Position numbers and translations under genes: made by a program | Shown here: in pieces, positions 8,650 to 50,909 of the stretch | Position numbering within the stretch: the first letter of the stretch is position 1 | How the letters are laid out: every line of letters begins with the position of its first letter | Source: a virus | Taxonomy: Duplodnaviria; Caudoviricetes | IMG/VR virus record: IMGVR_UViG_3300026522_000024 | Span: 32,001-96,000 of that record | Length of the DNA: 64,000 nucleotides | Reading direction: 5' to 3' (one strand) | The notes under the pieces: generated by a model | The model's input: only the letters and a program-made list of their open reading frames with translations | Told to the model about the DNA's origin: nothing | Databases searched by the model: none

Positions 8650-8961
8650 GTGATAAATATGAGCACTAAATACTTGATTCACGCTTTTAGCAGTACTCAG
8701 AGATTGGTAGCTACTAAGAAAAAGCCTGGTGATTGGCTTCTCACTAAAGAGTGGCGTTCAAATGCTAAAGAGGAATGGAGGGTTGGTAAAGGCATTTCCC
8801 TTCCAAGGGTAGCAGGCAAGAGTGTAGCTAATGACCTTGGATACCTTCTGGTGAATGATGGTTTAGTACAAGGTTTTGAGATTATTGACGAGAGAACAGG
8901 AGAGTCAAAACATGAAGAGAGTACCCATAGTAGGCATAAGAAGTCCAATTCAAGGAATTGA
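8650..8961 (+). CDS. Hypothetical protein
   Basis: ORF with RBS GAGGTG. Confidence 0.6.
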   Translation: MINMSTKYLIHAFSSTQRLVATKKKPGDWLLTKEWRSNAKEEWRVGKGISLPRVAGKSVANDLGYLLVNDGLVQGFEIIDERTGESKHEESTHSRHKKSNSRN

Positions 8962-9589
8962 GCGAACTCCAATACATATTGAGCGTATTCCTTGGGATGA
9001 TGTTTATAAGAAATACGTCAATTACATCAAATTCGCAGCAAAGTCTACTGCTCAGGATAATGAGGGCAATTCTGCTGAGGACTTGTTTCAGGAAGGTCAG
9101 TTGATTATGTATAACTGCTACCTTTTGTACGGAGATAAGCCTATTGAGGAATTTGGGGCTATCCTCAAAGCGTCAGTCTGGCGTAAGATGCGTGAAATCT
9201 GTAACAGGAAGCAGTTTATACAGGTTAACATTGAAGATGCTTATGACATCGGATATGATGAAGACACTGTAGAAAACATATATCAAGAGCAGAAACTTGC
9301 TCACCTGGCTAGTATGTTAGAGGATAACCCTATTGCTTTGACTATTCTCAAGGAGTTTGTTTCTCCATCTGCTAGAACCATATGGGAAGCAAAGATGGAT
9401 GTAGCCCGCAAAGAAATGTTGCGTTCTCAGGATTATAAGGTGAGCGTGCCCAAACAGGTTCAGCCTACTAAGGCATCTATCCAGAGAGCAATGGAGATAC
9501 CTAAGTCCAAATTTGAACAGCATTTCAAGGAACTGAAGGAAGCAATGCTAGTGGTATATCCAGAGCATCAGTTACAAATGTGCGTGTAA
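8912..9589 (+). CDS. Phage RNA polymerase sigma-factor-like protein
   Basis: Region-2-like YKKYVNYIK...AEDLFQEGQL and C-terminal HTH-like segment; RBS AGGAG before ATG 8912. Confidence 0.7.
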   Translation: MKRVPIVGIRSPIQGIERTPIHIERIPWDDVYKKYVNYIKFAAKSTAQDNEGNSAEDLFQEGQLIMYNCYLLYGDKPIEEFGAILKASVWRKMREICNRKQFIQVNIEDAYDIGYDEDTVENIYQEQKLAHLASMLEDNPIALTILKEFVSPSARTIWEAKMDVARKEMLRSQDYKVSVPKQVQPTKASIQRAMEIPKSKFEQHFKELKEAMLVVYPEHQLQMCV

Positions 9590-9641
9590 GTTTATTTGAG
9601 TTATCTTATTTTATGTTAGTTACAATAAGGAGGAATATGTT

Positions 9642-10049
9642 ATGGCAACTATTGAAGAAATGATTAAGAATTCCAGCTGCTTTGGTGTAGCTTTTGATGG
9701 TTCTGTACGTGAGTGCAAAATTTGCGAGGTTAAACTGAAGTGTGAGAGCAAGTGCCGTTTGGGTGGGGATTCTAAGCCTGCATCAGTTAATGTGGCTACT
9801 GCAGATGAAGTTACTCACAGCAACAACAAGAAGGCAACCAATAAGAAGTCTGTTCCTGTTAAGAAAGCAGCAAAGCCTAAAGCTGAATATGCTGATGATA
9901 TGCCTGACTTCAAGTCTATGTCTGCTGATGAGATTGAGCAACTGGCAGAGGAACGTGGCATTGACATGTCTCAGTTTGAGAAGTATAAGGCAGCAAACAT
10001 CAGACGCATGCGTGTCACAATGGCTCTGAAAAAGACTTACGAAAAGTAA
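9642..10049 (+). CDS. Cys-rich Zn-binding + HeH-like domain protein
   Basis: CFG...ECKIC...C...C cluster; C-terminal LAEERGID...NIRRMRVTMALKK. Confidence 0.7.
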   Translation: MATIEEMIKNSSCFGVAFDGSVRECKICEVKLKCESKCRLGGDSKPASVNVATADEVTHSNNKKATNKKSVPVKKAAKPKAEYADDMPDFKSMSADEIEQLAEERGIDMSQFEKYKAANIRRMRVTMALKKTYEK

Positions 10050-10115
10050 CAATTTGAAGGCGGTGGCGGTGGGATAACTCTCACCGCCATTTTGTTGTAT
10101 AGGAGGTAATAATCA

Positions 10116-10766
10116 ATGGCTACTATGGAAGAAAAAATCAGGAAAGCTATGGCTGAATTAGGACTTGACCCAGATGGTGGGGATGATAATGATAAGTCTA
10201 CAAAGGTTACAGTAAAGACAAAGCAATTAGAATCCACTAAAAAAGAGTCAGTTTCCAAACCAACACAAGCGGTTGTACCTAATAAGAAGGCTGATGTTTC
10301 GGAAAAATCAAAAAGGGCTGCAGTAGTGACAGAGAAGAAAGTAGAAACACAAACTGATGTGCAAGTGCCTCAGTCTATTTTCATGAAAATCAGTGGCAAT
10401 CACATGGTTCTCCTTATTCCAGAAGGGTTGGAATTGGATAAGCAGGTTATTGGAGGTAATACATATAACACTGTAGCTGTACAAGTGCCAGATTTTGGTG
10501 GTAAACTGTATGAAATGCCATTGATAAATACTGCTCACACTGTTTCTAAGTCCAATACTGTAGTTAGAGTGCCTATTATTATGCCTAAGACTGAGCCCAG
10601 TCAATTTTCTAACGATGAGTATCTGGAAAACTTATTGAAGGAGAAAAGTAGACTAGATGCTGAAATTAAGGCTGCTAGAGCAAGTCATGATGATAACCTT
10701 GTCAATGATTTAAGAAAGCAACGTAGAAGCATTAGAGCACGTATAAACCATATTGTGGAGGGTTGA
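10116..10766 (+). CDS. Hypothetical protein
   Basis: RBS AGGAGG; 216 aa. Confidence 0.75.
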   Translation: MATMEEKIRKAMAELGLDPDGGDDNDKSTKVTVKTKQLESTKKESVSKPTQAVVPNKKADVSEKSKRAAVVTEKKVETQTDVQVPQSIFMKISGNHMVLLIPEGLELDKQVIGGNTYNTVAVQVPDFGGKLYEMPLINTAHTVSKSNTVVRVPIIMPKTEPSQFSNDEYLENLLKEKSRLDAEIKAARASHDDNLVNDLRKQRRSIRARINHIVEG

Positions 10767-10767
10767 C

Positions 10768-11493
10768 ATGAACAGAGTGCCTATAATACATAGGGTGTCT
10801 ATTTATCGTAGGCACTCTATTTATCGTAGAACATCAGTATACCGCAGAAAGCCATTATACCCAGAGTTGTCTAAGTTTAGGACTTGTGAGTTATTGTATA
10901 ATAACAGTAATTGGTGTAAAAATAATGGCAAATACATCATTAGATGTATGGAAGCAGGTTTTGATTTCAATAAGGTAGCTAATGCTATTTCTTACGGAAG
11001 AGAACACAATAAAACTGCTAGACTTATAGTGGATTTTGAGGTAGATGAAAGAATACTGTGGGCTGCTTCTTATGCTGACCATAATATATTACAGATAAAT
11101 GTATTTTTGTGTAAAAAAGACCTGTCATGGGTAGGAAGATTATCCCATATTGCTAATAAGTGTGGAATGATTGTAGTATTATTCTTGTTTCCGATTGTAC
11201 CTAACAGGATAATGCCACATCACGTGCTTAGAGTCATTGATATGGTAAAGAATCTGCCCTCTCAGTATATAATGCTTAGGTTTGCTGAGTCTAAATCAAG
11301 ATTACTAGAACACGGTAATTGGATGAATATCAATGGAAAAGCTGTAGATAAGAGATTTATACAAGTAAATAATGAAAACTGGGGTTGTTCTCCTTTATTT
11401 AAGGAGAGATTTATGAAACTAATCATGGAGTATACAGAACCAAGGGGAATTAAAATTGGAGTTTGCGGAGATAGCGAAAACTGCATCATGTAA
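10768..11493 (+). CDS. Hypothetical protein, possibly a degenerate radical-SAM/SPL-like barrel
   Basis: LFPIVP and GIKIGVC resemble SPL-like C-terminal segments, but there is no CxxxCxxC motif; Arg-rich N-terminal repeats. Confidence 0.4.
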   Translation: MNRVPIIHRVSIYRRHSIYRRTSVYRRKPLYPELSKFRTCELLYNNSNWCKNNGKYIIRCMEAGFDFNKVANAISYGREHNKTARLIVDFEVDERILWAASYADHNILQINVFLCKKDLSWVGRLSHIANKCGMIVVLFLFPIVPNRIMPHHVLRVIDMVKNLPSQYIMLRFAESKSRLLEHGNWMNINGKAVDKRFIQVNNENWGCSPLFKERFMKLIMEYTEPRGIKIGVCGDSENCIM

Positions 11494-11515
11494 TAGGATT
11501 GTGAGGTGAGTACAT

Positions 11516-13327
11516 TTGGCTTTGAGACAAGTAGAACTAGATAAATTTTTATCAGTATCATTTCCTTGTAGATTAAATAAGCCTTTGTTGGTAAACATCA
11601 GAGGTTGTAATGGTTCTGGAAAATCCACAATACCTATTATGATGATGAATACTGACCCTTATGCCTTTGAGGTAGTTTGGTATAGAAATAACAAAAAACG
11701 TGTAATCTGTACAGTATTCCCATCATATGAATTCTTGGCTGTAGGTCATTATCACTCTAAGTGTGGAGGAATGGATTCAATAAAGGACACTCAGGAGGTC
11801 AAAGACTCAGTACAAGCATTGTGGAACTGTAAAATGAACATACTTATGGAAGGAATCATGGCGTCTACAGTATATAAGACTTACGCTGACTTGTTTTCTG
11901 AATTAAATAGTGATAACTCCAGAAAAGTATTGGTGTTTAATTTAGTACCTCCACTAAGCACATGCTTAGATAGGATACAGTCTAGGAATGGTGGTAAACC
12001 TATTAAGAGTGAATTGGTAGAGGGAAAATGGAAAACTGTATGTAGAAACCATGAAAAGTTTTCTGACGCAGGTTTTACTAGCATAAAGGCTGATAACTCT
12101 GAGATTTCTATAGGTGACACATTAAGTTGGTTCTTTGAAAAAATCAATTTTCGTACAGATACCTTTACAGATAAAATGATAAGTGCTTCTACTGCGGTAG
12201 AGTCAATTGAATATACAGATAAAAATGGAAAAATGAAAAGAATCAGGTCACTGCCAAAGTTTACTGGTACTCCAGAGCCAATTTATATACCTACTAAAGA
12301 GGATACAGAAGGGTATGAGTGGTCTAAATATTACAAAAAGCCCAATAAAAATATGGTTATAAATTGGGATAACATGAGGCTATATTGGTACTGGATAACT
12401 GAGAGAATGAGGATTTGGCACAGGAGAACAATTCTTAGAGAGCCATTCCCTTGGACTGAAGACAAGATTCTACAGGATAACAAATTCACTAATTGCTTCA
12501 GGGATTTGGATAGAGGTACACTTGTATACATCAGGGAGATTCTAAGGAAATTAGATGAACCTTGTGAAGATTTAACAAAGCGTATTAAGGAAGTCATACT
12601 AAACACACAAGTATATAGAATGTTTCTAAAGTATTCTACTTGGAAAAAGATAGGATTCTTGTATCTGGATACCTATGAGGAACAATGGGAGCAAGCCAAG
12701 GAAAAACTAAGAACTGCTAAGGCTAATGGTGAGGTTATATGGCACGCAGCTTATTTTGTTACAGACTTAAAAGCTGCCAATCCTAACCCTAAGACCAATC
12801 ATGACAAGCTGGAAAATGCTTTATGCTTATGTGAAATGTTTTATGAGTACTTAGACGACACCTATGAATATGTCATAAGTCATGATATGAAGGATTGTTT
12901 AGAGCATCTTGGACATTTTCCAGAGATAAAAGGATTCTCAGTATATGAATGGCTGTGTGATTGGGGGATGGCTTATAGATACGTGAAGAACTATTTTGTA
13001 AACTGGACAGACGACAGTTATGTAAATGTTGGTCCAGGCAATAGAATGGGGATGGATTTAATCTTTGAGGACAAAGGAGGTTTGGACTACCCAGAGTTGA
13101 ATTTCTATCTCAGAGCCTCATGGAAACACTACATGAAAAGGTATGGGTACTATGATGAGTTCATTTCTTTAATTCCGAAATGGATGAATGGTAGTGTAAC
13201 TGTTAGAACCATAGAGCATGATATATGTGAGACCCAGAAATACCTGAATATATACTATGGTATAGGCAGGACTAAAAGCAAGTTCAAGAATGAATCCAGA
13301 AATAACCTAGATTCACTAGTACTGTAG
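11516..13327 (+). CDS. 5-hydroxymethyluracil DNA kinase (P-loop kinase fused to aGPT-Pplase1/helical domain)
   Basis: NIRGCNGSGKST P-loop; ERMRIW..R....PWTEDKILQDNKFTNCFRDLDR signature; GPG and EHDICE motifs. Confidence 0.85.
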   Translation: MALRQVELDKFLSVSFPCRLNKPLLVNIRGCNGSGKSTIPIMMMNTDPYAFEVVWYRNNKKRVICTVFPSYEFLAVGHYHSKCGGMDSIKDTQEVKDSVQALWNCKMNILMEGIMASTVYKTYADLFSELNSDNSRKVLVFNLVPPLSTCLDRIQSRNGGKPIKSELVEGKWKTVCRNHEKFSDAGFTSIKADNSEISIGDTLSWFFEKINFRTDTFTDKMISASTAVESIEYTDKNGKMKRIRSLPKFTGTPEPIYIPTKEDTEGYEWSKYYKKPNKNMVINWDNMRLYWYWITERMRIWHRRTILREPFPWTEDKILQDNKFTNCFRDLDRGTLVYIREILRKLDEPCEDLTKRIKEVILNTQVYRMFLKYSTWKKIGFLYLDTYEEQWEQAKEKLRTAKANGEVIWHAAYFVTDLKAANPNPKTNHDKLENALCLCEMFYEYLDDTYEYVISHDMKDCLEHLGHFPEIKGFSVYEWLCDWGMAYRYVKNYFVNWTDDSYVNVGPGNRMGMDLIFEDKGGLDYPELNFYLRASWKHYMKRYGYYDEFISLIPKWMNGSVTVRTIEHDICETQKYLNIYYGIGRTKSKFKNESRNNLDSLVL

Positions 13328-13339
13328 GAGGTATCAATC

Positions 13340-13600
13340 ATGGCATACAAGAAGTCAGAAGAATTTTCCTATGAAATCACTAAGCATTTGTGTGACTTGT
13401 CCGAGAAGAACAAGGGATGGGTGAAGCAGCTGAATACCGTAAAATGGAATAACTCTAAGGAAGAAGTGTACGACATACGCAGCTGGCATTATCCTGATGG
13501 TTCTGATACTCCTGATAGGATGTCTAAAGGAATTTCACTTTCTTATGAAGAATTTGCGATTTTGTGTCAATCTGCTTATGATGAAGGCATTGTCAGCTAA
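13340..13600 (+). CDS. YdbC/PC4-family ssDNA-binding protein
   Basis: KGWVKQLNTVKWN, YDIRSW, RMSKGISLS. Confidence 0.85.
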   Translation: MAYKKSEEFSYEITKHLCDLSEKNKGWVKQLNTVKWNNSKEEVYDIRSWHYPDGSDTPDRMSKGISLSYEEFAILCQSAYDEGIVS

Positions 13601-13636
13601 ACAGATATTATTACTCATGTGAAGGGAGTGATAAAC

Positions 13637-14239
13637 ATGGTTGATAAGGACTTTTATGACTTGGTAAATAATGGAGTCAAGAGGTCAAGTGACAACTGGG
13701 GTACTGGAGTAATTCTTCAGCACCCTGTTACCAATAAAATCCTTCTAGCCAGAAGAACAGATGGAGATAAGCAGTATGCCTCACCTGGTGGTAAAGTAGA
13801 GTACCAGGAGAGTCCAAAAGAAGGAATACTGAGGGAGTGCAGAGAGGAAAGTAACGTAACCATAAAGGATATGTGTTGTTATGATTTCCGTACTCACTCT
13901 AGCCCTAATGGTAAGAATTGGGTTGACTTCCTGTTTTACTCTAATAACTTTGATGACTCTGACATACGGAATCAGCCATCAGAAATGGAAGAATTTTCTT
14001 GGTTCACAGTAGAGGATGCCTTGAATTTGGACTTGTTCCCACCAACCAAGGCAGCATTAAAGAGAGCAGTAGAGTTGGGACTCACAGCAGGTAGTTGTGA
14101 TGAACAGAATTACATTCCATTTGTAGACTGCCCATCTACTCCTTCTGCTGTACAGGATAGCTGCTGCTGTGCTTATTCTTTTGTAGAACCAGAGAAGATT
14201 TTTGATAAGGGTGATGCTCCTTATTTACCTTGGGACTAA
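13637..14239 (+). CDS. Nudix hydrolase
   Basis: Nudix box GGKVEYQESPKEGILRECREES. Confidence 0.9.
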   Translation: MVDKDFYDLVNNGVKRSSDNWGTGVILQHPVTNKILLARRTDGDKQYASPGGKVEYQESPKEGILRECREESNVTIKDMCCYDFRTHSSPNGKNWVDFLFYSNNFDDSDIRNQPSEMEEFSWFTVEDALNLDLFPPTKAALKRAVELGLTAGSCDEQNYIPFVDCPSTPSAVQDSCCCAYSFVEPEKIFDKGDAPYLPWD

Positions 14240-14269
14240 GCACACCAAATAATCTATGATTGATTGTAG

Positions 14270-14325
14270 ATACCTCTTTATTTAGTTAGGTGTAGTTTTA
14301 TAGCATCTACTAAATAAGGAGGTAT
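14270..14325 (+). promoter_or_regulatory. RBS-sequestering hairpin upstream of the hydroxymethylase
   Basis: ATACCTCTTTATTTAGTTAGGTGT pairs with GCATCTACTAAATAAGGAGGTAT, covering AGGAGG. Confidence 0.8.
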
Positions 14326-14329
14326 TTTT

Positions 14330-15616
14330 ATGTATTGTTTACAAGGAGAAAATCCTACTAAGATGTATTTACAGTCTATTAAGGACTTGATGGCTAATGG
14401 TGATGAAGTATCCCCCAGAGGTAAGTTGGTAAAGGAACTGCGTCCAGCTTGTATTGAGTTTCTTAATCCTTATAGCAGGGTAACATTCTTGGGGGGCAGA
14501 CGAATCAATCCATTCTTTCAGGTAGCAGAAAGCCTTTGGATTCTTAGTGGTAAGGCTGACGTGGAGTGGCTGACTAAGTTTAATGCCAATATGTCCATGT
14601 TCTCTGATGATGGAAAGTGGTTTAATGCTCCTTATGGAGAGCGAATCAGAACTTGGAACAAGAATGCTCTTCACAATGTAGTTATCAATCCTATTGACCA
14701 GTTGGCTGATGCATATAGAAAGCTGGTAAACGATAAGGATACACGTCAAGCAGTTATTGTGATTAGCAATCCTATGTTCGATAACTCTAAATATACGATT
14801 GATGAAAAAGGCAAGGATATTGCGTGTAATCTTGTGATTACTTTTAAGATTCGTCATGATGCTCTCAATATGACTGTATTTAATCGTAGTAACGATACTC
14901 ACTGGGGTGTATTTGGTGCTAATCTTTGTCAGTTTTCTACTATACAGGAAACACTGTTGAACTGGCTGCGTAAGTCTGGCAATCCAGAATTGTCTAGCCT
15001 GAAGATGGGTACTTATAACCAGATTACGGATTCACTTCATATTTACATGGATTCTTATGGCTCTAAGTGTACTGATGACGTAATGGATTACTATAAGGAA
15101 AATCCAGAGGAAGAACTGGAAGTTGATTTCCTTCTTGATTCTGATAAGGGTAATTTTGAGCCTAGAATGAGGTTGTCTGCTGAAGAGTTTGATGCCTTTA
15201 TCTCAGTATTCTGGAGCGTTATCAATCCTTATCTTATGGACGATGAAACACTGGTAGACGATGAGCGTTGTGAAGAAGTATTCGGAAAAGTAGGCTTAGT
15301 AGATGGCATGTACCGCAGAGGTGTAATAGATGACTACTGGCTTATGGTAATTCAGGCAATGCTGTCTTATAGGCTGGTTAAGATGGGCATGCTGTCTAAG
15401 GCACTCAACTACATGAGTGTAATGGCAGATTGCCAGTGGAAAGTTTCTATGATGTTTTTCCTCAAGACCTTTATTTATAAGCAAGAAGGTGATATGAAGG
15501 AAGAATGCTATAACAAATTTAATGAAATTGTGAACAACATGAAACTTAGCTACTCCAACGCATTTGGAGAAGATAGCAAGGAAGTAAAAATGTTAATGAA
15601 GTACTTGGCACTATAA
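14330..15616 (+). CDS. Thymidylate-synthase-superfamily dUMP hydroxymethylase
   Basis: YGERI, DTRQAVI, DIACN (catalytic Cys), RSNDTHWG...AN, SLHIY; next to the 5hmdU kinase. Confidence 0.85.
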   Translation: MYCLQGENPTKMYLQSIKDLMANGDEVSPRGKLVKELRPACIEFLNPYSRVTFLGGRRINPFFQVAESLWILSGKADVEWLTKFNANMSMFSDDGKWFNAPYGERIRTWNKNALHNVVINPIDQLADAYRKLVNDKDTRQAVIVISNPMFDNSKYTIDEKGKDIACNLVITFKIRHDALNMTVFNRSNDTHWGVFGANLCQFSTIQETLLNWLRKSGNPELSSLKMGTYNQITDSLHIYMDSYGSKCTDDVMDYYKENPEEELEVDFLLDSDKGNFEPRMRLSAEEFDAFISVFWSVINPYLMDDETLVDDERCEEVFGKVGLVDGMYRRGVIDDYWLMVIQAMLSYRLVKMGMLSKALNYMSVMADCQWKVSMMFFLKTFIYKQEGDMKEECYNKFNEIVNNMKLSYSNAFGEDSKEVKMLMKYLAL

Positions 15617-15628
15617 GGAGGACTTTAG

Positions 15629-16330
15629 ATGAATAATGATGTAACTCAGGTGATTTCTGATACCACCAATAAGAATGACCTTTTGATGATGCTAAATTAT
15701 CGGAGGTTGAAGAACATTAGACGTTGCAATAACCTGCCTACTATCAACACAGTAGACGTAGCTCAACATAGCTTTTATACTGCTCTTTTGGCAGTTACGT
15801 TGGCTTCAGACTATAATGTGTGGGCTACCAAGAACAATCTTCAGTATCACCCTTTGGACTTTGATAATCATGTACCTACCATTGATGGCGATAAGGCTAT
15901 GAAGAAGGCATTGTTCCATGATTTAGAAGAGTCATTTACTTCTGATATTCCTTGGAACGTAAAGCACCATGATGAGAAAGCACATGAGGCAATTACTGAA
16001 TGTATTCATTCTAAGCTGAACAAAGTGTATGATGGATGTAGTCCTGTTATTATGGAGCACAAGCACTTCATTGAGACCTGTAAGGACAAAACTATTGAAG
16101 GACAGCTGGTAGATTTAGTAGATTCTCTGGAGTGTGCTTGGTACTGCTATCAAGAAGTGAGCATGGGTAATAAATACCTTGGGAATATGTTAAATAAGTG
16201 CGTAAAGCTCATTGAGGCTATGCCTTTGTACGAAAAGTTGTATAAGGCAAGCCCCATATTCAAGAGCATGATAAAGCTGTTCGATAATTTGGCTAAGTCC
16301 AACTGTGATAAGACTATGAATATTGATTAG
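15629..16330 (+). CDS. HD-domain 5'-deoxynucleotidase (YfbR-like)
   Basis: VAQHSF, ALFHDLEESFTSDIP, VDSLE. Confidence 0.85.
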   Translation: MNNDVTQVISDTTNKNDLLMMLNYRRLKNIRRCNNLPTINTVDVAQHSFYTALLAVTLASDYNVWATKNNLQYHPLDFDNHVPTIDGDKAMKKALFHDLEESFTSDIPWNVKHHDEKAHEAITECIHSKLNKVYDGCSPVIMEHKHFIETCKDKTIEGQLVDLVDSLECAWYCYQEVSMGNKYLGNMLNKCVKLIEAMPLYEKLYKASPIFKSMIKLFDNLAKSNCDKTMNID

Positions 16331-16340
16331 GAGGAAAATT

Positions 16341-16751
16341 ATGAGTAATCAGCAGGAACTGAAGGAAGAACTCTTGCGTAAGTTTAAGGAGTATCTTGAT
16401 AGTCAGGAGGAATTGAGTCCAGACAACATTAATATGATGAAGTTTCTTCCGTACCTTTTGAAGCTACAGAATCAGAAGTCACTCATATATGGACGTAGCT
16501 ACTGTAGACATGGCGATTTGTCCATCTTCTTGAATACAGAGAGAAAGTGGGATAGAATTTCCAACATAATGGACAACGCTATGAAGTCAGGGATGAATAC
16601 ACTTTATAGTGATAAATCAGCCACTCCTACAGAGACTTTTGTGGATACAGTAGTAGACCTAGCCAGCTATGGGATGCTGTGGGCAGCGTACATTATGGAA
16701 ACTCATCCAGAGGACTTCCAAAGATTTATTGAGAATAATGAGATAGAGTAA
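16341..16751 (+). CDS. Nucleotide-modification-associated all-alpha (MazG-like) protein
   Basis: K...YGRSY...IFLNTERKWDRI...ETFVDTVVDLASY. Confidence 0.6.
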   Translation: MSNQQELKEELLRKFKEYLDSQEELSPDNINMMKFLPYLLKLQNQKSLIYGRSYCRHGDLSIFLNTERKWDRISNIMDNAMKSGMNTLYSDKSATPTETFVDTVVDLASYGMLWAAYIMETHPEDFQRFIENNEIE

Positions 16752-16867
16752 CAGGAAAATTTTACAGCAATTCTAAATTGACGTGTAAAATTAAGGTACA
16801 TCCGTTATATTTATGATAGAACCCATTTGAGGGAGAAATAAAAACATACAAGAAGGAGAGATTAACC

Positions 16868-17296: not shown

Positions 17297-17325
17297 TTAC
17301 GACATCAATTCCATAAAGAAATAGC

Positions 17326-17360
17326 AAAGCCGTGTTGTGTAAGAGCAACACGGCTTTTCT
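17326..17360 (+). terminator. Rho-independent terminator
   Basis: AAAGCCGTGTTG...CAACACGGCTTTTCT. Confidence 0.85.
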
Positions 17361-17433
17361 GTTCACTAACTAATGTAATACCATGGTATATCCCTTTATT
17401 TAGGGTAGACTTATTAAGAAGGGAGTTGAGTAT

Positions 17434-23022: not shown

Positions 23023-24120
23023 ATGGCTAAAAATGTGAAGCGTAAGCCAGTAATAACTCCAGAGGAAACAGATGAAGATGTGCAGTTTCTTCAGGAATTA
23101 GCTGATAAAGTCAATAAAACCTTAGAGCGTGATACCATTATGGTAGGTGACAACGTAGGTGACTCTAATGTACCATATTGGATATTGACTGGTATTCCAG
23201 CATTGGATTTTGCTATTGGTGGCAAGTGTCATCCAGGCATTCCAGGTGCTAGAATTACAGAGATATTTGGTCCAGAGGCAGTTGGTAAATCTACGCTCAC
23301 ACTGTGGATAATGAAGCAAGCTATAGAGCAGCAGAAGGCTATTGCTTATCATCAGGACGCAGAGAGGGTGCTTACTCCAGAAATCATTAAGGGTACTGGT
23401 ATTAACATGAATAGAGTTATGCGTGACCAACCAGATACCTTAGAGGAAGCATTTGACGCACAGGAAGCAATGCTAGAGGAATTGCAAGGCAGAAAGAGTG
23501 CTGTAGTAACCATACTGGATTCAATTGCTGCTTGCTCTACAATGGCTGAGATTGAAGGGGACATGGGAGACCAACAGGTTGGTAGCCATGCTAGGGTAAT
23601 GAGTAAGGGGTTGCGTAAGATTAAGTCAGCAATTCTTGAGTCTTATGTCCTTTCACTTTGGGTTAACCAGACTAGAGAGAAGATTGGTGGAACTTCTTGG
23701 GGAGATAATACTACTACATTTGGTGGTAAGGCAATGTCCTTCTATGCTTCTGTACGTATAAAGCTGTCTAAGATTAAGACGCTGAAAAAGAACAAGGACA
23801 GTGATGCCTATGGTTGTACTATTGAGGCTACTGTTGTAAAAGATAAGGTAGCACCACCACTGCGTAAGGCTCACTATGATATTCTCTTTATTCAAGATAA
23901 AGATGGAAGCTATCCAAAGTTGGATATTGAGGGTGCTTTGCTTGATTGGTGTAGAGATAATGATTTAATTGGTGGTAATAAGTCATCTGGTAGATACGAA
24001 CTCAATGGCAAGAATTTGTATAGAGACCAAGCCAGGCGGATGCTTATGGATGACCCAGAATTGTTTAGAGAAATTTGGGACTTGGCGTATTCATTGGCTA
24101 CTCCATTGGAATCTGAATAA
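23023..24120 (+). CDS. recA: RecA/UvsX recombinase
   Basis: EIFGPEAVGKST, LDSIAA, ARVMSKGLRK, NQTREKIG, GGKAMSFYASVRI. Confidence 0.95.
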   Translation: MAKNVKRKPVITPEETDEDVQFLQELADKVNKTLERDTIMVGDNVGDSNVPYWILTGIPALDFAIGGKCHPGIPGARITEIFGPEAVGKSTLTLWIMKQAIEQQKAIAYHQDAERVLTPEIIKGTGINMNRVMRDQPDTLEEAFDAQEAMLEELQGRKSAVVTILDSIAACSTMAEIEGDMGDQQVGSHARVMSKGLRKIKSAILESYVLSLWVNQTREKIGGTSWGDNTTTFGGKAMSFYASVRIKLSKIKTLKKNKDSDAYGCTIEATVVKDKVAPPLRKAHYDILFIQDKDGSYPKLDIEGALLDWCRDNDLIGGNKSSGRYELNGKNLYRDQARRMLMDDPELFREIWDLAYSLATPLESE

Positions 24121-31341: not shown

Positions 31342-31345
31342 AGGG

Positions 31346-32026
31346 GTGAATCCTTTGAGAAAATCCATAACTAAGATTAAGAGACACCCTATAACCACCA
31401 AAGTCATCCGAAAACCCATACTAGCATTCAATAGACGCAATGCTGAGATGAATCCTAAATTTCTTGATAAGGAAGTACTGTTAGAGAGATTTTCCCCATT
31501 AATACAATCTATGTACAGATACTTCTGTTCCTATGATGGAATGTTTAATCAGCAAATGGATTCTCAGGACTTGTATAGTCAGATTCAGTCAGAATTCATA
31601 GAACTTACACATAAGTATGACCCACGTAGGGGTGTAGATTTTACAGGGTATATCAAGTTTCACCTAAGACAAAGAGTATACCACTGGGTGATGAAAACCC
31701 AAAAAGTACAAAATACTGAACAAGTGCTTGTTCAATACGATAGTGATGATACTATGGATATGGATGACCTAGTATCATATGAGGACAAGAAAGATACCTA
31801 TACGGAACACGAATTAGTTAGGGCTGAAGGAATAGCCAGTATACCATGGGATAAAATCCAGGATAAAGAACACATAGAACTCATAAATGAAATTCTTATA
31901 AAACGTCATTCTATAGAGGATATAGCAAAGAGCAGGAAAACATCTGTAAGGGCAGTTACTACTCAGTTTGAGGAATTATGTCAGTTGATATATAACATAC
32001 AGGTTAATGGTGATAAAGTTGATTAA
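31346..32026 (+). CDS. Second phage sigma-factor-like protein
   Basis: LLERFSPLI, QDLYSQ, KYDPRRGVDFTGYIK (region 2); SIEDIAK...SVRAV HTH. Confidence 0.8.
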   Translation: MNPLRKSITKIKRHPITTKVIRKPILAFNRRNAEMNPKFLDKEVLLERFSPLIQSMYRYFCSYDGMFNQQMDSQDLYSQIQSEFIELTHKYDPRRGVDFTGYIKFHLRQRVYHWVMKTQKVQNTEQVLVQYDSDDTMDMDDLVSYEDKKDTYTEHELVRAEGIASIPWDKIQDKEHIELINEILIKRHSIEDIAKSRKTSVRAVTTQFEELCQLIYNIQVNGDKVD

Positions 32027-34836
32027 GGATTTGGAAGAAGCAAATAATTTGATAGAGAAATACTGTACGGTATGCGATTCCACTAATGTTTCAGTTAGAT
32101 TTGCTAAGTATAAATGGTATTATGTAGGCTGCTTAGACTGCTGGAACAAGATGGAGTGCGATGAGGCTAATTTGGAGTACGCCATAGAATTATGGAATGA
32201 GATGGTTATAAAATGCAAAAAGCTGAAAAATATGATGTAGTTACTACGTTGGCTGCTAAATATCACTTTTCCAAGGAAGATTATCAGATGCTGAATGATG
32301 CTATTGATAACGAAATCAAGGAAGCACTCACCAATCAGCGTAAAGAAATCATAAGTATTCTTGAGGACTTGGCTAAGAAGGAGAAAAAGTGATGAATGCC
32401 CCCATAGTATTTAAGTGGGATAAACACAAGAAACTATGGAACCATATGAAGAAAAATTATGACCTAACAAGGAGGGTTGGTCTTGTTCAAGCTAAAGAGA
32501 TTATTCGCAGTAAGTATCTTGGTGATAATAGGACTATACCTAATAGCTGTTACGCTTGTGAGTACGCATTTCTTTATTCTGAGCACCATTCTGATGCTCA
32601 CAAGTGTTTCTACTGTCCAGTAAAGGTTGATAAATGTAGTAGAATGGATAGTTGGATGGCTCAACTAACATATGCAATTCAGGAGGATAATAAGCAGGAA
32701 TATGTAAGGCTGTGTGAGTACATGGAAAACATAGAGGTGAAGGAGGGTGTTCCTTGTGGAGAGTAGATTGAATAGGTGGATGAGAAATAACAGGGAAATA
32801 ATGACTTGGATAAAAGTCATATTCGTAATAGCGATTTCAATATTGATGTGTGGGTGATATAAATGGAAAGAGAGCAAAAAGACCTACTGATTAAGGTAGA
32901 TAATGCCATAACATTTTTAGACAGTTTAGTATTTCTACATAAGTCTAAAGAACAGGATGACTTGTCTGAAATGACTAAGATGATAGATGGAGCAGCAGAG
33001 GTAGTGAAAGAGTTAAGGCAGTCTTGGCTTATATCTATAGGAGAGCCACAAGAGATAAGTAAAGAAACCATGGAAAAGATAATGACTGCTGTAGCTGGAG
33101 AGTAATACATCAGCAAATTGATAACAACAATTTATAGGAGGTAAAACATGGATATAGTGAAAACTGCTATAGCTAAGCTGAGTGAGGGTGATGTCAGAAT
33201 TGCTCATCATCATGATGTACTGTTGGAGAACTGTGAAAAATTAGTAGAGCATCAGGCAGAGATTATCAGTGTCTACAATCAGAAGGTTGGACGCACCACT
33301 TATGATAGAGTACATGGCAAACCAGATAGAGATTAACAAGAGCCTACTTATAATGCTCAAGAATTACCGTAATAGGGACATGAATGGAGTGAGGTAAATG
33401 CAGCTATTCAAGGTAGACCATGTAGCCTGTTACATCTGTGGTAAGACAGGTCAGGACTCAGACGTAAAGATGCTGGACTGGCAACCCAAAAATAATGGTG
33501 ATAGATTTGGTCCATACAGAACTCCACTTTTACAGGTTGCCTTATGTAAGGATTGCAGAAAAGAGTTATCTCAGACTATTTCAGAGGGGCGAGCATAAAT
33601 GTGTTACGGTATGAACTGCCTATTTGAAGCAACCTCTGGATGTAACATAGGAACTTGTACAGCAGACTTTGACTTAGTAGACAAGTTTATTAAGGATAAA
33701 AACCTAACTAATATCACTAAGTGCTTCATAGGTGGTGGAGAGTTAGTCACTTATGAGGCTACTGATGACGACTGTAAGAAGTCCATGAGCTTGTGGAACC
33801 AGCTAAAGGAATACGGAAAACACCATTATGGAGGAACAATATCAAAGATATAGCCAACAGGAGGTCTGAGTAATGGCAAAATGCATAGAATGTGAAAACG
33901 CATTAATTGGTAGAAGCCATATTGTAAAGCCGATTAGCTCAACGCAGAGAATGGTTTCAGATTGGACTATTGATGCAGGTGTAATCGAAAGACCAGTATT
34001 TACAGTGAAATAGATTGCTCAGATTATAGGAGGATTGACGATGAAACTGGAAGAAGCAATTAAGCATTGCGAAGAAGTCGCAGATTCAAAATGTGACGCT
34101 TGCGGAGCAGAACATAGACAACTTGCAGAATGGCTAAAAGAACTGAAAGAGCGCAGAAATGGTGGCTCGTACAATTCTAACGCGAGAAAAGATTTCATGG
34201 GCATTGTTTATGACGAATTAAGTGATGATGCAGATAATCACAGAGCGAACAGAATCATAGACGCAGCAGATGCGTATGCATACAGTTTCAAGGACACTAT
34301 GGAGGAACAGTAAATGGATAGACATCCAATTATAACAGAGAATCTAAATGTAGTAATGGTACAGAATGCTACAACATTTACTGACCTTATTCCAGACTAC
34401 CAGTTTCAATTTCAGAACGTACCTCCATCAGAGGAAGCAGAGAGCATGTTCTCTTCACTGGTAGATTTTATACAGACAAATGAGGAAATGGCAGTAATGA
34501 ACATAGAAACTAAGGACGAATATGTAAAGGGATTCAAGCGTGCCTTAGCACTAACTAGACTGTGGATGAACAGTTTATACTTGGAAGGAGATAAAACTAA
34601 TGATAATCTTGGCTCATGATACTATTGTTAACTTTGATGATATATCTACTATTTATGTTTCCTACAAGAAAACTCACTACATGATTATAGCTAGGCTGAA
34701 AGACGGAACAGAGTGGACGCTGCTAGACTCAGACTGGATAAGCACAATTGTAGAACCAAATAAGCTGCTGAACGATATAGCCAGTGCTTACAGTAAGAAA
34801 ATGGAAGTATATAACCTGTCAGCCAGAGAAATATAA
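32007..34836 (+). other. Belt of about 12 small hypothetical ORFs, several with CxxC Zn ribbons
   Basis: Closely packed ORFs with RBSs (e.g. 32007, 32389, 32863, 33148, 33398, 33599, 34035, 34314, 34600). Confidence 0.65.
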
Positions 34837-35100: not shown

Positions 35101-35826
35101 ATGGCAGAAATAGAAAGAACACCAATACGTAAAAATAACAAGGTGGTACTTCCTAGAGTATCACCCAAACTTATTGAACTATGTAAATGGAAAAAGATAG
35201 ACCAAGTAAACCAGATGTTGGACGAAGGAGAATCACCAGGTCAGGTACACAAGTGGATAGTAAAACATGGCTTCAAGATAAGCCATCCGCTGATATATGA
35301 ATACGCTAAAATGCGTAGGAAGTGCCTTGTGGACGGCATATCAATTGACCACATGGTAGGAATAGCAGGAAAACCTCTATTCAATAAGAATGATGTCCTG
35401 ACTCAGTCTTCACACGATAAACTTAAATCAGAAATTGATGCCCTAGATTTACTGATTCAGGGAGGATATAAAACCCTACAGGAGTGGGCAGACCGACCAA
35501 TCACACCAGCCGTAATGATGGCTGCTATAAAGCTAAAGAATGACCTGACAGATGGAAATCATGGATTCCTCACTAACTTTGGTATGGAACACCTCAGAGA
35601 CATTGAGAACACTAAATACAGTCTTATAATTGACCACCTGATTTCTTATATTCCAGAAGATAAACGCAAGGAAGCAGTGTCTAAGATAGCTCAGATTGAG
35701 GATTCTTACTACCAGACCACTGAGTACTATGAAGAGTATCTAAGGGCTTCAGGTGAGTACTCAGAGGAAGAAATACAGAAGAAAGTGGAAAAGTGGTTGA
35801 AGGAACGCCACACTACAGCTGTGTAA
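35101..35826 (+). CDS. Hypothetical protein with N-terminal HTH-like segment
   Basis: 241 aa; QMLDEGESPGQVHKWI. Confidence 0.7.
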   Translation: MAEIERTPIRKNNKVVLPRVSPKLIELCKWKKIDQVNQMLDEGESPGQVHKWIVKHGFKISHPLIYEYAKMRRKCLVDGISIDHMVGIAGKPLFNKNDVLTQSSHDKLKSEIDALDLLIQGGYKTLQEWADRPITPAVMMAAIKLKNDLTDGNHGFLTNFGMEHLRDIENTKYSLIIDHLISYIPEDKRKEAVSKIAQIEDSYYQTTEYYEEYLRASGEYSEEEIQKKVEKWLKERHTTAV

Positions 35827-39849: not shown

Positions 39850-40362
39850 ATGGATGCGTTACAACAGAGTTTAGCTGGCATAATTCCCAGTTATTATAAC
39901 AAGAATACCAATACTTATTCGTATTCCACGAATTATGGTACTATTGAGATTGATGGTACTACTAAGCAGGTGAAAAGCTGCTGCATTGGGTTCAGTGATT
40001 ACTCTGTACAGCATGCCAATAAGCGTGTTGTTATCCGTATACTGGGAGACGAATTCTCCATACGTACTGGTACTATTTTTAAGGAAAACACTGAAATGGC
40101 ATCTAAAGGCTATCCATATAAGCTGTCACATTCTGATACTCCTAAAGTAACAGAGGTATTCGATGTACTGTCTAACATCAAGGAAATGACTCAGGGTATA
40201 ATGGCTGTTTTTATTAAGTTGATTCACCTTATGGAAGTCAACGGAAAAGTGACTGAGAACAGCTACGCAATAAAGGAACTGAGACGTAACATGATGCTGT
40301 ATTCTAGGCACATTCTCAGGCATCCAGTAGTTACTCGTAAGCCTATTGTTACTAAATCATAG
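39850..40362 (+). CDS. Hypothetical protein
   Basis: RBS AAGGAGG; C-terminal RHPVV/RKPIV. Confidence 0.7.
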   Translation: MDALQQSLAGIIPSYYNKNTNTYSYSTNYGTIEIDGTTKQVKSCCIGFSDYSVQHANKRVVIRILGDEFSIRTGTIFKENTEMASKGYPYKLSHSDTPKVTEVFDVLSNIKEMTQGIMAVFIKLIHLMEVNGKVTENSYAIKELRRNMMLYSRHILRHPVVTRKPIVTKS

Positions 40363-45237: not shown

Positions 45238-45702
45238 ATGAATAAGATACCATTTAATCAACTCACTACGTGTCTGCTGCCAGATAGTATGATTACATTT
45301 ACAGAGTTTACCTTAGATAGACACGAGAAAAAGCGGATGACCCTGCAGATAAAAGATGCCATAGTACATGAAATAATACCGAGTAATCAGAAACTTAGCA
45401 GAGAAGAACTGGAACTATACTATGGAGAAGGATTGGAAGATATTGATTACCTTCAGCTATCCTCTATGAACTGCCTGAGAATTGTTTTGAGAGTAGGCAT
45501 AAACGAATTGGAGCAACCTGTATTTAAGGTTATTTCAATTAGTAGGGATTTTTATGATGAAGGGCTTCAGGAGTTAGAGATTATGGGTGCTGAGATTAAG
45601 ACTGAGCCAAATTACTTCCTTAGTATGGCTCAATTTGCCACGGAGCCAGTCACCGTAACCCAGCTTGAACAACCTATCAGAGTACCGATTATCACTCACT
45701 AA
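45238..45702 (+). CDS. Hypothetical protein
   Basis: RBS AAGGAG; C-terminal RVPII. Confidence 0.7.
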   Translation: MNKIPFNQLTTCLLPDSMITFTEFTLDRHEKKRMTLQIKDAIVHEIIPSNQKLSREELELYYGEGLEDIDYLQLSSMNCLRIVLRVGINELEQPVFKVISISRDFYDEGLQELEIMGAEIKTEPNYFLSMAQFATEPVTVTQLEQPIRVPIITH

Positions 45703-47588: not shown

Positions 47589-47592
47589 AACT

Positions 47593-48252
47593 ATGTGTGG
47601 AATCATTGGATTTATTAGTGATAAAGTAACAGAAAATCAGATGCACTGCCTAAAAACTGTAATGATTGAGAGCCGTATTCGTGGTATGCATGCCTCTGGA
47701 GTTGTGTATTACATAAACAATAAAAAGAAAAGCATGGTGATTCCAGAGCCCATAGATGTATTAGTGAAAAAGCTAGACTGGACATCCATGATAGGTTGTA
47801 AAGTGTCACTGATAGCTCATGCTAGATATAGCACCAGCGACATTAAGTACAATCAACCTATTATAGACAAAGATACTGGCATTGCCATAGTACATAACGG
47901 AGTGGTGTCTCAGTCACCACCAGAGCAGTGGGAGCAGCAATTTGGGTATAAGACTCAGACTAAGAATGACAGTGAACTGTTGTTGAGGTGTATAATAGAT
48001 GGCAAAGACCCATTAAAGGTATTTCCTGAATCTAGCATTGCTGCCTTGGTGCTGAATAAAGACCATTCCATAAGAGTTATCCGAAATGGATTGAGACCTC
48101 TGTGGACTGGAGAGGTAGAAGGTGCTAGAGTGTACGCCAGTACATTCGACATTCTCAGTAGAGCGAATATAGAGCCTCACAAGGTAGATTGCTCAGGAGT
48201 AGAGAAGCAGGTGTATTCTAACCACAATATAAGGACTCCAATTTTGATTTGA
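47593..48252 (+). CDS. Class II (Ntn) glutamine amidotransferase
   Basis: MCGIIG N-terminal Cys, RGMHASG, HARYST, NQP, HNG, DSE, RPL. Confidence 0.9.
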   Translation: MCGIIGFISDKVTENQMHCLKTVMIESRIRGMHASGVVYYINNKKKSMVIPEPIDVLVKKLDWTSMIGCKVSLIAHARYSTSDIKYNQPIIDKDTGIAIVHNGVVSQSPPEQWEQQFGYKTQTKNDSELLLRCIIDGKDPLKVFPESSIAALVLNKDHSIRVIRNGLRPLWTGEVEGARVYASTFDILSRANIEPHKVDCSGVEKQVYSNHNIRTPILI

Positions 48253-48263
48253 GGTGAAAACAC

Positions 48264-49229
48264 ATGGAAACAACAAGGGACAGGGTTTCACTGTTCATTG
48301 ATTTTTGTAGAAATAGCATCTATGCTCACGATGTAGACCCAGCAATCAACTACATGAACTATATAATCAGACGAATGGAATTGAATGAAGAGCAGGTCAT
48401 ATGGTTGTGCTTTCTATATGGTATAACGTATCAGCTGCCTACTGCTTGGGTTATTTGGAACGAAATGCCAGACCTAGAACTGGTAAATAAGGAAAGACTA
48501 ACGAAGTGGTTAACACCTGAAGTGCTCCATAGACTTCCATTCCAACAGGACAAAATAAAGTGTAGACCTAAGATGGCTGAGACGATACTCTCATATCAGT
48601 CCATAGTGGGTAAGTCTCAGGCAGAATACTTTGATAATCTGTTAGACAGTGATGACCCTCATGAGAATTTCTGGAGAATGTGGTCACCATTGAAGTCTAT
48701 ATACTGCTTTGGTAGGTTTTCCACATGGAATTTTTGTCAGGCTTTGAAGCATGTAGCAGGATATAATGTAGAGCCTACCATACTTATGATTGGTGAACCA
48801 GATAGTGTTTCCTTTACTGATGGGTTGGCTTATGCTTTCAATCAGGATGACAAGCTAACTAAGAAGGAAACCATAGGCAAGAAGAAGGTAAAGGTGTACT
48901 ACAAGTGGAGTGACCAAGAGAAAGATGACATGGAGCGTTCAGCACTCATACTGAAGAAGTCACTGAACCTAGATAACTTCCAGTTGGAGACATTGGCGTG
49001 TGCTTTCAAGAAGATATGGAGAACAGCAGACAGCAGGTACGTAGGATACTATAATGATAGAGCAGCAGACGACATCAAGAAAACTGCTTCTATGGGATGG
49101 AACGGAATAGACTGGAAACTGCTCTGGGATGCTAGACAAGCTACAATTCCACAGGAGTATATTCATGATAACAAGGGAGTCAATACCATGAACTTCAAGC
49201 TGGAACCATATCAGAAGGTATACACATAA
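48264..49229 (+). CDS. Amino-acid:DNA transferase (aGPT-Pplase2/AADT family)
   Basis: DVDP...WLCFLYG, FGRFSTW, LETLACAFKK, RYVGYYNDR motifs. Confidence 0.8.
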   Translation: METTRDRVSLFIDFCRNSIYAHDVDPAINYMNYIIRRMELNEEQVIWLCFLYGITYQLPTAWVIWNEMPDLELVNKERLTKWLTPEVLHRLPFQQDKIKCRPKMAETILSYQSIVGKSQAEYFDNLLDSDDPHENFWRMWSPLKSIYCFGRFSTWNFCQALKHVAGYNVEPTILMIGEPDSVSFTDGLAYAFNQDDKLTKKETIGKKKVKVYYKWSDQEKDDMERSALILKKSLNLDNFQLETLACAFKKIWRTADSRYVGYYNDRAADDIKKTASMGWNGIDWKLLWDARQATIPQEYIHDNKGVNTMNFKLEPYQKVYT

Positions 49230-49241
49230 GAGGTGTTATAA

Positions 49242-50909
49242 ATGAGCATTGAGCGTGTGCCCATAATCACTAGAATTAACACATCTGAAATAGAGGAACA
49301 GATGTGTAATAAATTCGCTGACCTATGGGCATTAAAATACAAGACAATTAAGGGCAAGCCTACTACATTTATTAGTAGTAATCCATTCAAGCATAGACCG
49401 TGGCAGTCAGCTATACTTAGGGATACTCACCCAAATAAAGTCATAGAGAAGTCAAGGCAGCTTGGTATGTCTGAAGTAGGACTATCAGAGGTTTTACACT
49501 TCCTTACTACTAAGGAAAATGTAAAGGCTATGTACATATTTCCTAGGAATCAACAGATGGTAGACTTTTCCAAGTCCAGAATAAAGCCAGTGTTACAAAC
49601 TCCATACTTTTTGGACAAAGTAGATAAAACTATGGACAGTGTCACTACCAAAAAGATATTGGATAATTGGTTATTCATGCGTTCTGGCTGGGAAGGTGCT
49701 ACTGGTGAGGGTGTTGATACTGATTTCTTAGCTATAGATGAGTATGACCGCATGAAGGATGGAGTGGAATTATCCTTCCAAGAAGGATTATCAGCCAGCA
49801 AGTACGGATACATGCGTAGGTGGAGTACTCCTTCCATTCCAGGTAGAGGTGTAAACGGTGCTATAAGTAAGTCTGACCAGATGAAGTATATTTGGACTTG
49901 TGAACACTGTGGTACTAAACAATTCCTTACGTTTGATGATAATCTCATTCAGGTCAATCCTAATGGTGTAAACTCTGCTACTCAGGAGATAGCTGATGGC
50001 ACTTTCATTATAGGATGTAAGAAGTGTAAAAAACCTATCAATAGAATGGGAATAGGAGAATGGGTGCCAATGTACCCATCTATTCATGAGGTTAGAGGGT
50101 ATCATATCAGCCAGCTTGATGCTGCTTGGATAAGTGCTGATAACATCATGAGACGTAGATTCAGCTACTCATCGAAGCAGTTGTTCTACAATTACGTTAT
50201 AGGAGAGCCATTTGCTTCAGAAGGAATCAAGATAACAGAAGCTGATATCAAGGCATCCATCCGCTTGGGACGTGAGCAAGTGGCTAGGACTTCAGCATAT
50301 GCTGCCATAGTAGCAGGTATAGACTGGGGTGACGTCAGCTACATGTGTATCCTAGGAGTAAAGAGCAACGGCGTAGTAGACTTGCTCAATCTTCATAGCG
50401 TACATGATGACAGTAAAGTACCTCTGAAAGCAGTTGCATACTTCTGTGCCATTCTTAGGTCATACCAACCTAACATAGTGGTAGCAGATGCTGGGTACGG
50501 TGCTGATAAAAATAGCTATGGGTATACACAATTCCCTGCTGCTTGGTATTCCTGCTACTGGACTACAAATAAAGACGCACACAGCAAAACCAGATTCATT
50601 GACCAATGGAATGAATCTTCCAGAGAGGTAACTGTAGATAAGACCTTATCTATACAGAGAGTGCTTCACTCTATAAAGGGGCATCTTATAGGGCTGTTCC
50701 CGTGGTGTGAGAAGATTGCTATGTTTACTCAGCACCTCAAAAATACGGTTATCATGGATGAAGAAAGTGATGGACTAGTATATAGCAGGGCAACTAGAGT
50801 TGGTCCAGACCACTACTGCTGTGCTTTAGCATATGGACTTATAGGTGTAAACAAGCTGACTAATTACAATATTAATGTCAATAACTCCACATCTGTAGAG
50901 TTTATCTAA
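49242..50909 (+). CDS. Terminase large subunit
   Basis: KSRQLGMSE, IDEYD, STP, CEHC/CKKC Zn site, GYHISQL, GIDWG, PDHY. Confidence 0.92.
   Translation: MSIERVPIITRINTSEIEEQMCNKFADLWALKYKTIKGKPTTFISSNPFKHRPWQSAILRDTHPNKVIEKSRQLGMSEVGLSEVLHFLTTKENVKAMYIFPRNQQMVDFSKSRIKPVLQTPYFLDKVDKTMDSVTTKKILDNWLFMRSGWEGATGEGVDTDFLAIDEYDRMKDGVELSFQEGLSASKYGYMRRWSTPSIPGRGVNGAISKSDQMKYIWTCEHCGTKQFLTFDDNLIQVNPNGVNSATQEIADGTFIIGCKKCKKPINRMGIGEWVPMYPSIHEVRGYHISQLDAAWISADNIMRRRFSYSSKQLFYNYVIGEPFASEGIKITEADIKASIRLGREQVARTSAYAAIVAGIDWGDVSYMCILGVKSNGVVDLLNLHSVHDDSKVPLKAVAYFCAILRSYQPNIVVADAGYGADKNSYGYTQFPAAWYSCYWTTNKDAHSKTRFIDQWNESSREVTVDKTLSIQRVLHSIKGHLIGLFPWCEKIAMFTQHLKNTVIMDEESDGLVYSRATRVGPDHYCCALAYGLIGVNKLTNYNINVNNSTSVEFI

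Follow-up and report, generated by a model that had tools for sequence, protein, structure and literature searches.

A short R-x-P-[IV] peptide near the ends of DNA-acting proteins in an uncultured SPO1-like phage clade: a putative docking motif

Docking tails shared by proteins of DNA transactions are already known. In phage T4, clamp-binding tails that can replace one another sit on variable linkers of the late sigma factor gp55, of its co-activator gp33 and of polymerase gp43 (PMC2988020, PMC7892883), and the terminase contacts gp55 and gp32, T4's single-stranded DNA-binding protein (SSB) (PMC9026906). Such tails couple late transcription, and possibly packaging, to replication. A second described arrangement is the SSB hub, in which a short peptide contact brings many unrelated DNA-metabolism proteins to a single hub on the DNA; examples are the bacterial SSB C-terminal tail and the acidic domain of T4 gp32. 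The partners of gp32 include the RecA-type recombinase, the helicase loader and the terminase. Here, we describe a short peptide, R-x-P-[IV] (hereafter the tag), which recurs near the ends of unrelated proteins encoded by a stretch of 64,000 nucleotides (the window) of the viral record IMGVR_UViG_3300026522_000024. The window comprises bases 32001-96000 of a complete phage genome of 116,104 bp, and positions preceded by w are window coordinates. The idea of a shared docking tail is not new; the motif itself is.

The analysis covered 125 plus-strand genes with ribosome-binding sites, and a tag was counted as terminal when it lay within 25 residues of a protein end. The pattern R-x-P-[IV] occurs 21 times genome-wide; 16 of these occurrences, distributed over 12 of the 125 proteins, are terminal, and the terminal windows make up 18% of the residues. 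In 1000 within-protein shuffles, 5.99 occurrences are obtained in total and 1.09 ± 1.06 at the termini, with a maximum of 6 terminal ones. The terminal enrichment over shuffled proteins, proposed as a check in the first-pass annotation of this DNA, is thus borne out. R.P[IV] also ranks first for terminal count among all 400 X.Y[IV] patterns. The codons vary synonymously between the copies (AGA, CGT, CGA or AGG for Arg, all four codons for Pro, and ATA or ATT for Ile and GTA or GTT for Val at the last position), therefore selection acts on the peptide and not on the DNA, and the same variation rules out a DNA-level motif. One might suspect that chance or compositional bias is at work, or that nucleotides or translation initiation have an effect close to the gene ends, as the motif is short and was defined post hoc. 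However, 16 terminal occurrences stand against at most 6 in any shuffle, the pattern is the first of 400, and independent replication of the enrichment comes from homologue families and from the loci of relatives. An effect at the level of nucleotides or initiation is further contradicted by the varying codons and by the existence of C-terminal and internal copies. Chance and nucleotide-level effects are refuted, and we assign them a negligible probability.

The tag has a recognizable context. A hydrophobic residue is often found 2-3 positions upstream, and another I, V or T often follows. Tandem arrangements are common, often with 2-3 copies spaced 6-9 residues apart. Position x is occupied by V, T, H, K or S in this phage and by Q in many relatives; across homologues it tolerates any residue, acidic and aromatic ones included. 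Each N-terminal tag comes after a start codon that has a Shine-Dalgarno site, a weak one (GGA only) in the case of w35101. All eleven instances listed at first pass are present at their places (Table 1), and w8912 additionally has a degenerate ERIPW beside its three copies. The label of sigma factor given to w8912 stands as a lead only: its language-model (atlas) neighbours carry Sigma70_r2, but neither Pfam nor PHROG gives a match. Outside the window, the two copies of the Rep-like protein coincide exactly with the start of the conserved phrog_14232 domain at residue 204. Ahead of the phrog_14232 domain lies another one, N-terminal, lineage-specific and ~200 residues long, with the tags at the junction, and it seems from this arrangement that the extra domain was joined to the front of a protein with an N-terminal tag. 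Two further occurrences were set aside as probable chance: RLPI, which is part of the Pfam domain of a baseplate protein (genome 12931-13494), and R-R-P-V, which stands at residue 41 of w61649, a cargo protein of 1199 aa, within a separate capsid-cargo leader.

The proteins that carry the tag form a restricted set. Seven of them have an assignable function, and all seven act on DNA: RecA, the late sigma factor, the sigma-like w8912 (as a lead), the large terminase, a homing endonuclease, the Rep-like/helix-turn-helix protein and the glutamine amidotransferase (GATase), whose gene adjoins a predicted DNA amino-acid transferase gene (w48264). Untagged are PolA, the helicases including the DnaB-like one, the primase, the ligase, the nucleases including the flap endonuclease, the SSB and the HU-like protein, together with all enzymes of nucleotide metabolism, all lysis proteins and all virion proteins. 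The theme of transcription, recombination, modification and packaging that had been noticed at first pass holds, and it extends to homing endonucleases and the Rep-like protein. The description of the tag as phage-wide was overstated; ~10% of the proteins are tagged, and those of known function are all DNA-acting. Such a DNA-only division of the proteins is predicted by a localisation or docking signal and would not be predicted by a turnover or folding signal.

The tag is conserved beyond this genome. The metagenome protein collection contains a large clade with terminases 53-77% identical to that of this phage, and the tallies for terminase and RecA were counted by eye on printed N-termini and alignments. 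The terminase carries 1-3 N-terminal copies, within ~25 residues of the start, in 63 of 120 homologues; an example of such a start is M-E-R-Q-P-I-I-V-R-Q-P-I-I-N-I-E-R-Q-P-I. In the tagged terminases, the copies are usually followed by a D-L-L-x-x-D-S stretch, then by a variable linker and then by the conserved body. The longer form of this stretch, D-L-L-x-x-D-S-x-x-S, is seen in most terminase N-terminal extensions (homologues P0027-P0111), including some terminases without R-x-P-[IV], and is absent from the terminase of this phage. The aligned RecA sequences contain a canonical copy in 17 of 22 cases, ~10 residues ahead of helix A, and one-letter departures (KKPV, RVTI, RKAI) in 4 of 22; conservation in the Arg column reaches at least 90%. 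In the three-member alignment of the w34314 family, M1, R3, P5 and I6 are invariant and the length of the linker varies. The C-terminus of the w39850 family holds one copy in L035, two in this phage and three in L042. The w10768 family keeps the tag as well, and its orthologue in L037 starts with MVRQPIKVT. The GIY-YIG endonucleases of three different phages also start with the tag; the tagged genes of L030 (11688-11846) and L037 (11749-12642) lie immediately downstream of the terminase gene, and that of this phage lies in the virion-gene block.

The position of the tag can change within the same protein. In this phage and in L071, it is part of an N-terminal extension of the gp34-like late sigma factor. 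In L070, the N-terminal extension is missing, and the protein has instead a 40-residue C-terminal extension with E-R-K-P-I-Y-V-G-R-Q-S-I. The gp33-like partner in L070 is also tagged and starts with M-I-K-R-T-P-I. The genes of the gp33-like/gp34-like pair (window 31048-32026; L070 17113-18169) follow the ligase in the order of SPO1 genes 33 and 34, and the gp33-like member in L070 belongs to PF25742.

The tag is not kept everywhere. The C-terminal tag of GATase is retained in a 99%-identical relative (L001/L044) and is absent from L033, L034 and L035. The C-terminal tag of w45238 is present only in this phage and its 99% twin, and it is a lineage-specific gain, because the orthologues in the same three loci lack it. 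Homologues thus keep the tag in the terminase, RecA, w34314, w39850 and w10768 families, but for GATase and w45238 it is confined to this phage and its 99% twin. In the called proteins around the terminase of five relatives, all R.P[IV] occurrences are terminal: L030 (6/6), L033 (4/4), L034 (5/5), L037 (6/6) and L042 (5/5), and in L037 the terminase is untagged and other proteins are tagged. No tags are seen in the L036 locus near the terminase; a RecA starting with M-A-E-I-E-R-N-P-I (P0218) appears to belong to the L036 lineage, which would thus carry the tag. SPO1 lacks the tag, and the loci of Bacillus phages, like those of four more remote outgroups, contain 0-1 R-x-P-[IV], mostly 0. The outgroup G002, a 131-kb relative with 54% terminase identity, contains 6 among 179 proteins, three of them N-terminal. 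These three look-alikes (K-R-I-P-V, I-R-V-P-V and N-R-F-P-I) occur in small proteins of G002 (L062-L068) at 16162-16407, 22374-22529 and 32715-32969, and they may have arisen by chance or be a weak remnant of this system beyond the clade. A tag that is conserved and yet free in position and copy number bears the signature of a short linear motif (SLiM).

The structural context agrees with a signal outside the folded domains. The outgroup orthologues of the two sigma-like proteins align only from residues 26 (w8912) and 33 (w31355), so the sigma tags sit on added extensions. In the AlphaFold2 model of RecA (35-sequence alignment, mean predicted local distance difference test (pLDDT) of 82), residues 1-15 have a pLDDT <50 and precede a helix at residues 18-34. 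The tag makes no contact in cis in this monomer, which speaks against self-docking to RecA as far as cis contacts are concerned. In the AlphaFold2 model of the terminase, which is only moderate (mean pLDDT 65), residues 1-12 form a low-confidence coil. The few fixed positions of the tag (R, P and I/V) thus lie in disordered sequence, and they are conserved relative to their flanks and yet gained, lost, duplicated and relocated. The first-pass suggestion of a short linear signal, for which docking, localisation and degradation were offered side by side, is well supported by the extensions missing from the outgroup orthologues, the disordered tail of RecA, the retention of the tag in orthologues with variable linkers, the variable copy number and the swap of terminus on the same protein.

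To account for the enrichment, the peptide-level selection, the disorder, the conservation with positional freedom and the restriction of the clients, we propose with moderate confidence that R-x-P-[IV] is a multivalent short linear docking motif, which tethers a defined set of clients to one receptor tied to phage DNA transactions. The clients would include the late sigma factor (in one phage also its gp33-like partner), the second sigma-like factor, RecA, the large terminase and the Rep-like protein, followed by homing endonucleases, DNA-hypermodification helpers and some small proteins without known function. We infer that one protein reads the tag and that this reader is DNA-associated, because the clients of known function all act on DNA while the core replisome is untagged. 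The receptor would reside on replicating or recombining phage DNA, where the tag would concentrate the activities of the clients. It would bind the tag in an extended conformation, and the side chain of position x probably points away from it, because this position tolerates any residue. Tandem copies would provide avidity for an oligomeric or DNA-coating receptor.

Such an arrangement resembles the T4 clamp-binding tails, in which one short interchangeable peptide is placed on flexible variable linkers of several DNA enzymes, the late sigma factor and its co-activator among them, and the same functional role, the coupling to replication, is proposed for the tag. The sharing of the tag by the sigma factor and the gp33-like protein in L070 matches T4 as a functional parallel only. 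The differences are substantial. The T4 tails are hydrophobic-acidic and strictly C-terminal, whereas the tag is R-x-P-[IV], mostly N-terminal, also C-terminal or internal, and often tandem. The T4 polymerase is a client, but the polymerase of this phage is untagged. The family-A DNA polymerase gene (window 17434-21182) consists of two open reading frames (ORFs), 17434-19182 and 20226-21182, which are separated by an ORF of 193 aa (19468-20049); in L070 and L071 the polymerase is a single piece of ~930 aa with an N-terminal UDG-like domain. No match to the beta-clamp, gp45 or PCNA families (PF00712, PF02768, PF02916, PF00705) is found in the complete phage genome, and the Pfam and PHROG scans of 60 phage proteins give no clamp family either. 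As no clamp family is found and the polymerase is not a client, the reader is probably something other than a phage-encoded clamp. The bacterial beta-clamp motif (QL[SD]LF / QLxLxL), a penta- or hexapeptide of toolbelt type in polymerases, repair proteins and transposases, is a comparable case; the tags do not fit its consensus, since they lack the Leu/Phe pair and do not need a Gln. Compared with the SSB hubs the polarity is reversed: there, the hub carries the peptide and the clients the pocket, while here the clients carry the peptide. The capsid-targeting or prohead-protease leader of the T4 capsid-targeting sequence type was also rejected, with RecA, sigma factors, terminase and endonucleases as clients and with C-terminal and internal copies; the capsid-cargo enzymes of this phage carry a leader family of their own.

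A different explanation is that the tag is read by a host AAA+ machine or chaperone (the ClpX N-domain as for the XB tail of SspB, a ClpC adaptor, Lon or the DnaK cleft) and leads to timed degradation or remodelling. ClpX signals, the SspB XB tail and DnaK peptides are likewise short basic-hydrophobic terminal peptides of unrelated proteins, read by beta-strand addition. The tag is comparable to them in its basic-aliphatic make-up, which would resemble the basic and beta-branched composition of the XB peptide LRVVK, UmuD LREIV and the DnaK model peptide NRLLLTG, and in its location at the very ends of proteins, as in bacterial degrons; no phage-encoded reader has been found. On the other hand, the known Clp and DnaK motifs, whose outcome is unfolding or degradation, do not include a conserved Pro, which is strict in the tag. 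RecA and the terminase keep the tag over >45% sequence divergence, the terminase in 2-3 copies, which is odd for proteins needed in large amounts until lysis. Two proteins have internal copies that look functional, and the limitation of the clients to DNA-acting proteins is not predicted by a turnover signal. We therefore regard a degron or chaperone signal as unlikely. The invariant Arg and Pro would also suit the substrate site of a phage modifying enzyme, for example one that adds ADP-ribose to Arg (PARP-like) or a zeta-like kinase that phosphorylates, so that the tag would serve for covalent marking. Proteins with a PARP domain, zeta-toxin-like kinases and GHKL proteins are indeed encoded beside the terminase block in this phage and its relatives. 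Yet the tandem and variable copy number suits avidity better than catalysis, and the PARP-like and zeta-like enzymes carry the separate capsid-cargo leader, which makes this explanation very unlikely.

The tag might also bind DNA directly, as a minor-groove clip similar to the AT-hook, perhaps with a preference for hypermodified thymidine DNA. The clients with a known function are all DNA-acting, the tandem repeats are reminiscent of multi-hook proteins, and the clade has a 5-hydroxymethyldeoxyuridine (5-hmdU) kinase, an amino-acid:DNA transferase and a GATase, none of which is found by tblastn in the 131-kb outgroup. However, the tag has a single basic residue, often with an acidic residue before it (IERVPI, MDRHPI, IERTPI) and hydrophobic residues at +3 and +4, unlike the R-G-R-P of AT-hooks with its basic flanks; an AT-hook as such was rejected, and direct binding to DNA is hardly probable. 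Several observations weigh against a docking motif as well. The core has only three fixed positions, so the specificity must come from the context, and the extreme terminal placement is equally expected of a protease degron. Several tagged proteins have no assigned function, so that the statement that all are DNA-acting rests on seven. Relatives at 40-55% identity do not share the tags of GATase and w45238, and related phages manage without the tag. The receptor and its binding of the tag are what we infer, not what we observe.

For the docking reading, the leading candidate receptors are the gp32-like SSB (w22010) and the HU/TF1-like protein (w16868). In the SSB (window 22010-22948), the C-terminal region is long and acidic, and the SAP-like helix-extended-helix module that interrupts it can be aligned only with the closest homologues. 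The HU/TF1-like protein (window 16868-17296) has a Lys-rich N-terminal extension of ~35 residues and an arm tip, R-K-G-N-N-V-x-T-G, which is conserved in an eight-member alignment and contains no proline; the arm tip of HU/IHF proteins usually has one. Other possible receptors are a 195-aa protein encoded directly before the SSB, a PC4-like protein and RecA itself, and these three are absent from the tag-poor outgroup G002.

Table 1. Occurrences of the R-x-P-[IV] tag in the phage genome. Positions are window coordinates unless marked as genome.
Tag	Position	Strand	Carrier protein
Three tandem tags (RVPI, RSPI, RTPI)	8918..8974	+	Sigma-like w8912-9589, residues 3-21
Internal tag RVPI	10566..10577	+	w10116-10766, residue 152; protein without family match
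N-terminal tag RVPI	10774..10785	+	w10768-11493; gene directly upstream of the 5-hmdU DNA kinase
N-terminal tag RKPV	23041..23052	+	RecA/UvsX-like recombinase w23023-24120
Two N-terminal tags (RHPI, RKPI)	31382..31420	+	gp34-like late sigma factor w31355-32026
N-terminal tag RHPI	34320..34331	+	Small protein w34314-34619
N-terminal tag RTPI	35116..35127	+	w35101-35826 (phrog_1007, no function assigned)
Two C-terminal tags (RHPV, RKPI)	40318..40347	+	w39850-40362
C-terminal tag RVPI	45679..45690	+	w45238-45702
C-terminal tag RTPI	48232..48243	+	GATase w47593-48252
N-terminal tag RVPI	49254..49265	+	Large terminase w49242-50909
N-terminal tag, start MKRTPIF	genome 105649-106749		GIY-YIG/NUMOD3 homing endonuclease, outside the window
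Double internal tag	genome 27846-29255 (L027:12846-14255)		Rep-like protein, outside the window

The phage genome is rated complete, has a 127-bp terminal overlap and 39% G+C, and has nearly all of its genes on one strand. Among 50,697 deposited phage genomes, none encodes a large terminase with more than 50.7% identity to that of this phage, and the best matches are SPO1-type Bacillus phages. Because of this low identity, the clade has no cultured member. Megablast of the phage DNA gives no DNA-level match, and, apart from a near-identical fragment and a single tag-bearing contig of 47 kb, the search of IMG/VR returned just outgroups. A scan of genome contigs gives only 44-50% matches (Peptoniphilus and Gallicola assemblies) and no clue to the host. 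According to Pfam and PHROG scans, the genome encodes an SPO1-like replication and recombination module with UvsW-like and DnaB-like helicases, Mre11, primase, the split PolA, flap endonuclease, ligase and NrdD, and with the gp32-like SSB, RecA and the HU/TF1-like protein. The same scans identify a thymidine-hypermodification set composed of the 5-hmdU DNA kinase, a dUMP-hydroxymethylase-like enzyme and GATase. The amino-acid:DNA transferase Pfam family (ADDT) matches the orthologues of w48264 in relatives and not the window gene itself. The late transcription pair, gp33-like and gp34-like, is present, and L070 and L071 keep the replication block syntenic over its full length, hmdU kinase to sigma factor.

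Two side observations concern other proteins of the clade. The 228-aa protein of w43214-43900 is 44-64% identical across the clade and combines a globular part of ~165 residues with a tail rich in Glu/Gln/Pro/Thr; neither a family nor the atlas gives a match. A second shared module, [GI]-x-x-[RW]-M-R-x-x-M-A-[LI]-K-K, stands at the end of several unrelated proteins: the SNF2 helicase of relatives, the GHKL ATPase, a capsid-cargo protein and the small protein w9642. Its sites are window 9642-10049, 58180-60036 and 53568-54524 and the SNF2, GHKL and gp51-like genes of L030, L033, L034 and L036, and it is also present in the outgroup G002.

The first-pass annotation knew of no description of the tag, and none emerged here: full-text literature searches returned no account of the motif or of a similar phage hub, and a sequence search of the PDB with the tag region gives no match. 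A look-alike search for window 7412-19411 likewise has no match in other genomes. The T4 logic of docking peptides, which ties late transcription and perhaps packaging to replication, is known only where a sliding clamp exists. A similar list of clients with a different peptide, in phages in which no clamp is detected, points to an unrecognised hub protein, and the four-residue tag is a direct bait for finding it. As a tentative and more far-reaching possibility, this large SPO1-like clade without a detectable clamp family could run a toolbelt of its own, in which one DNA-associated reader gathers its clients through an interchangeable tag and a new kind of receptor couples late transcription, recombination, hypermodification and packaging to the replicating DNA. 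The tag also offers a natural example of SLiM evolution in bacterial viruses, with a swap of terminus, a drift in copy number and an uptake by mobile endonucleases. For the uncultured clade, it is a cheap sequence marker to predict which orphan proteins act on phage DNA.

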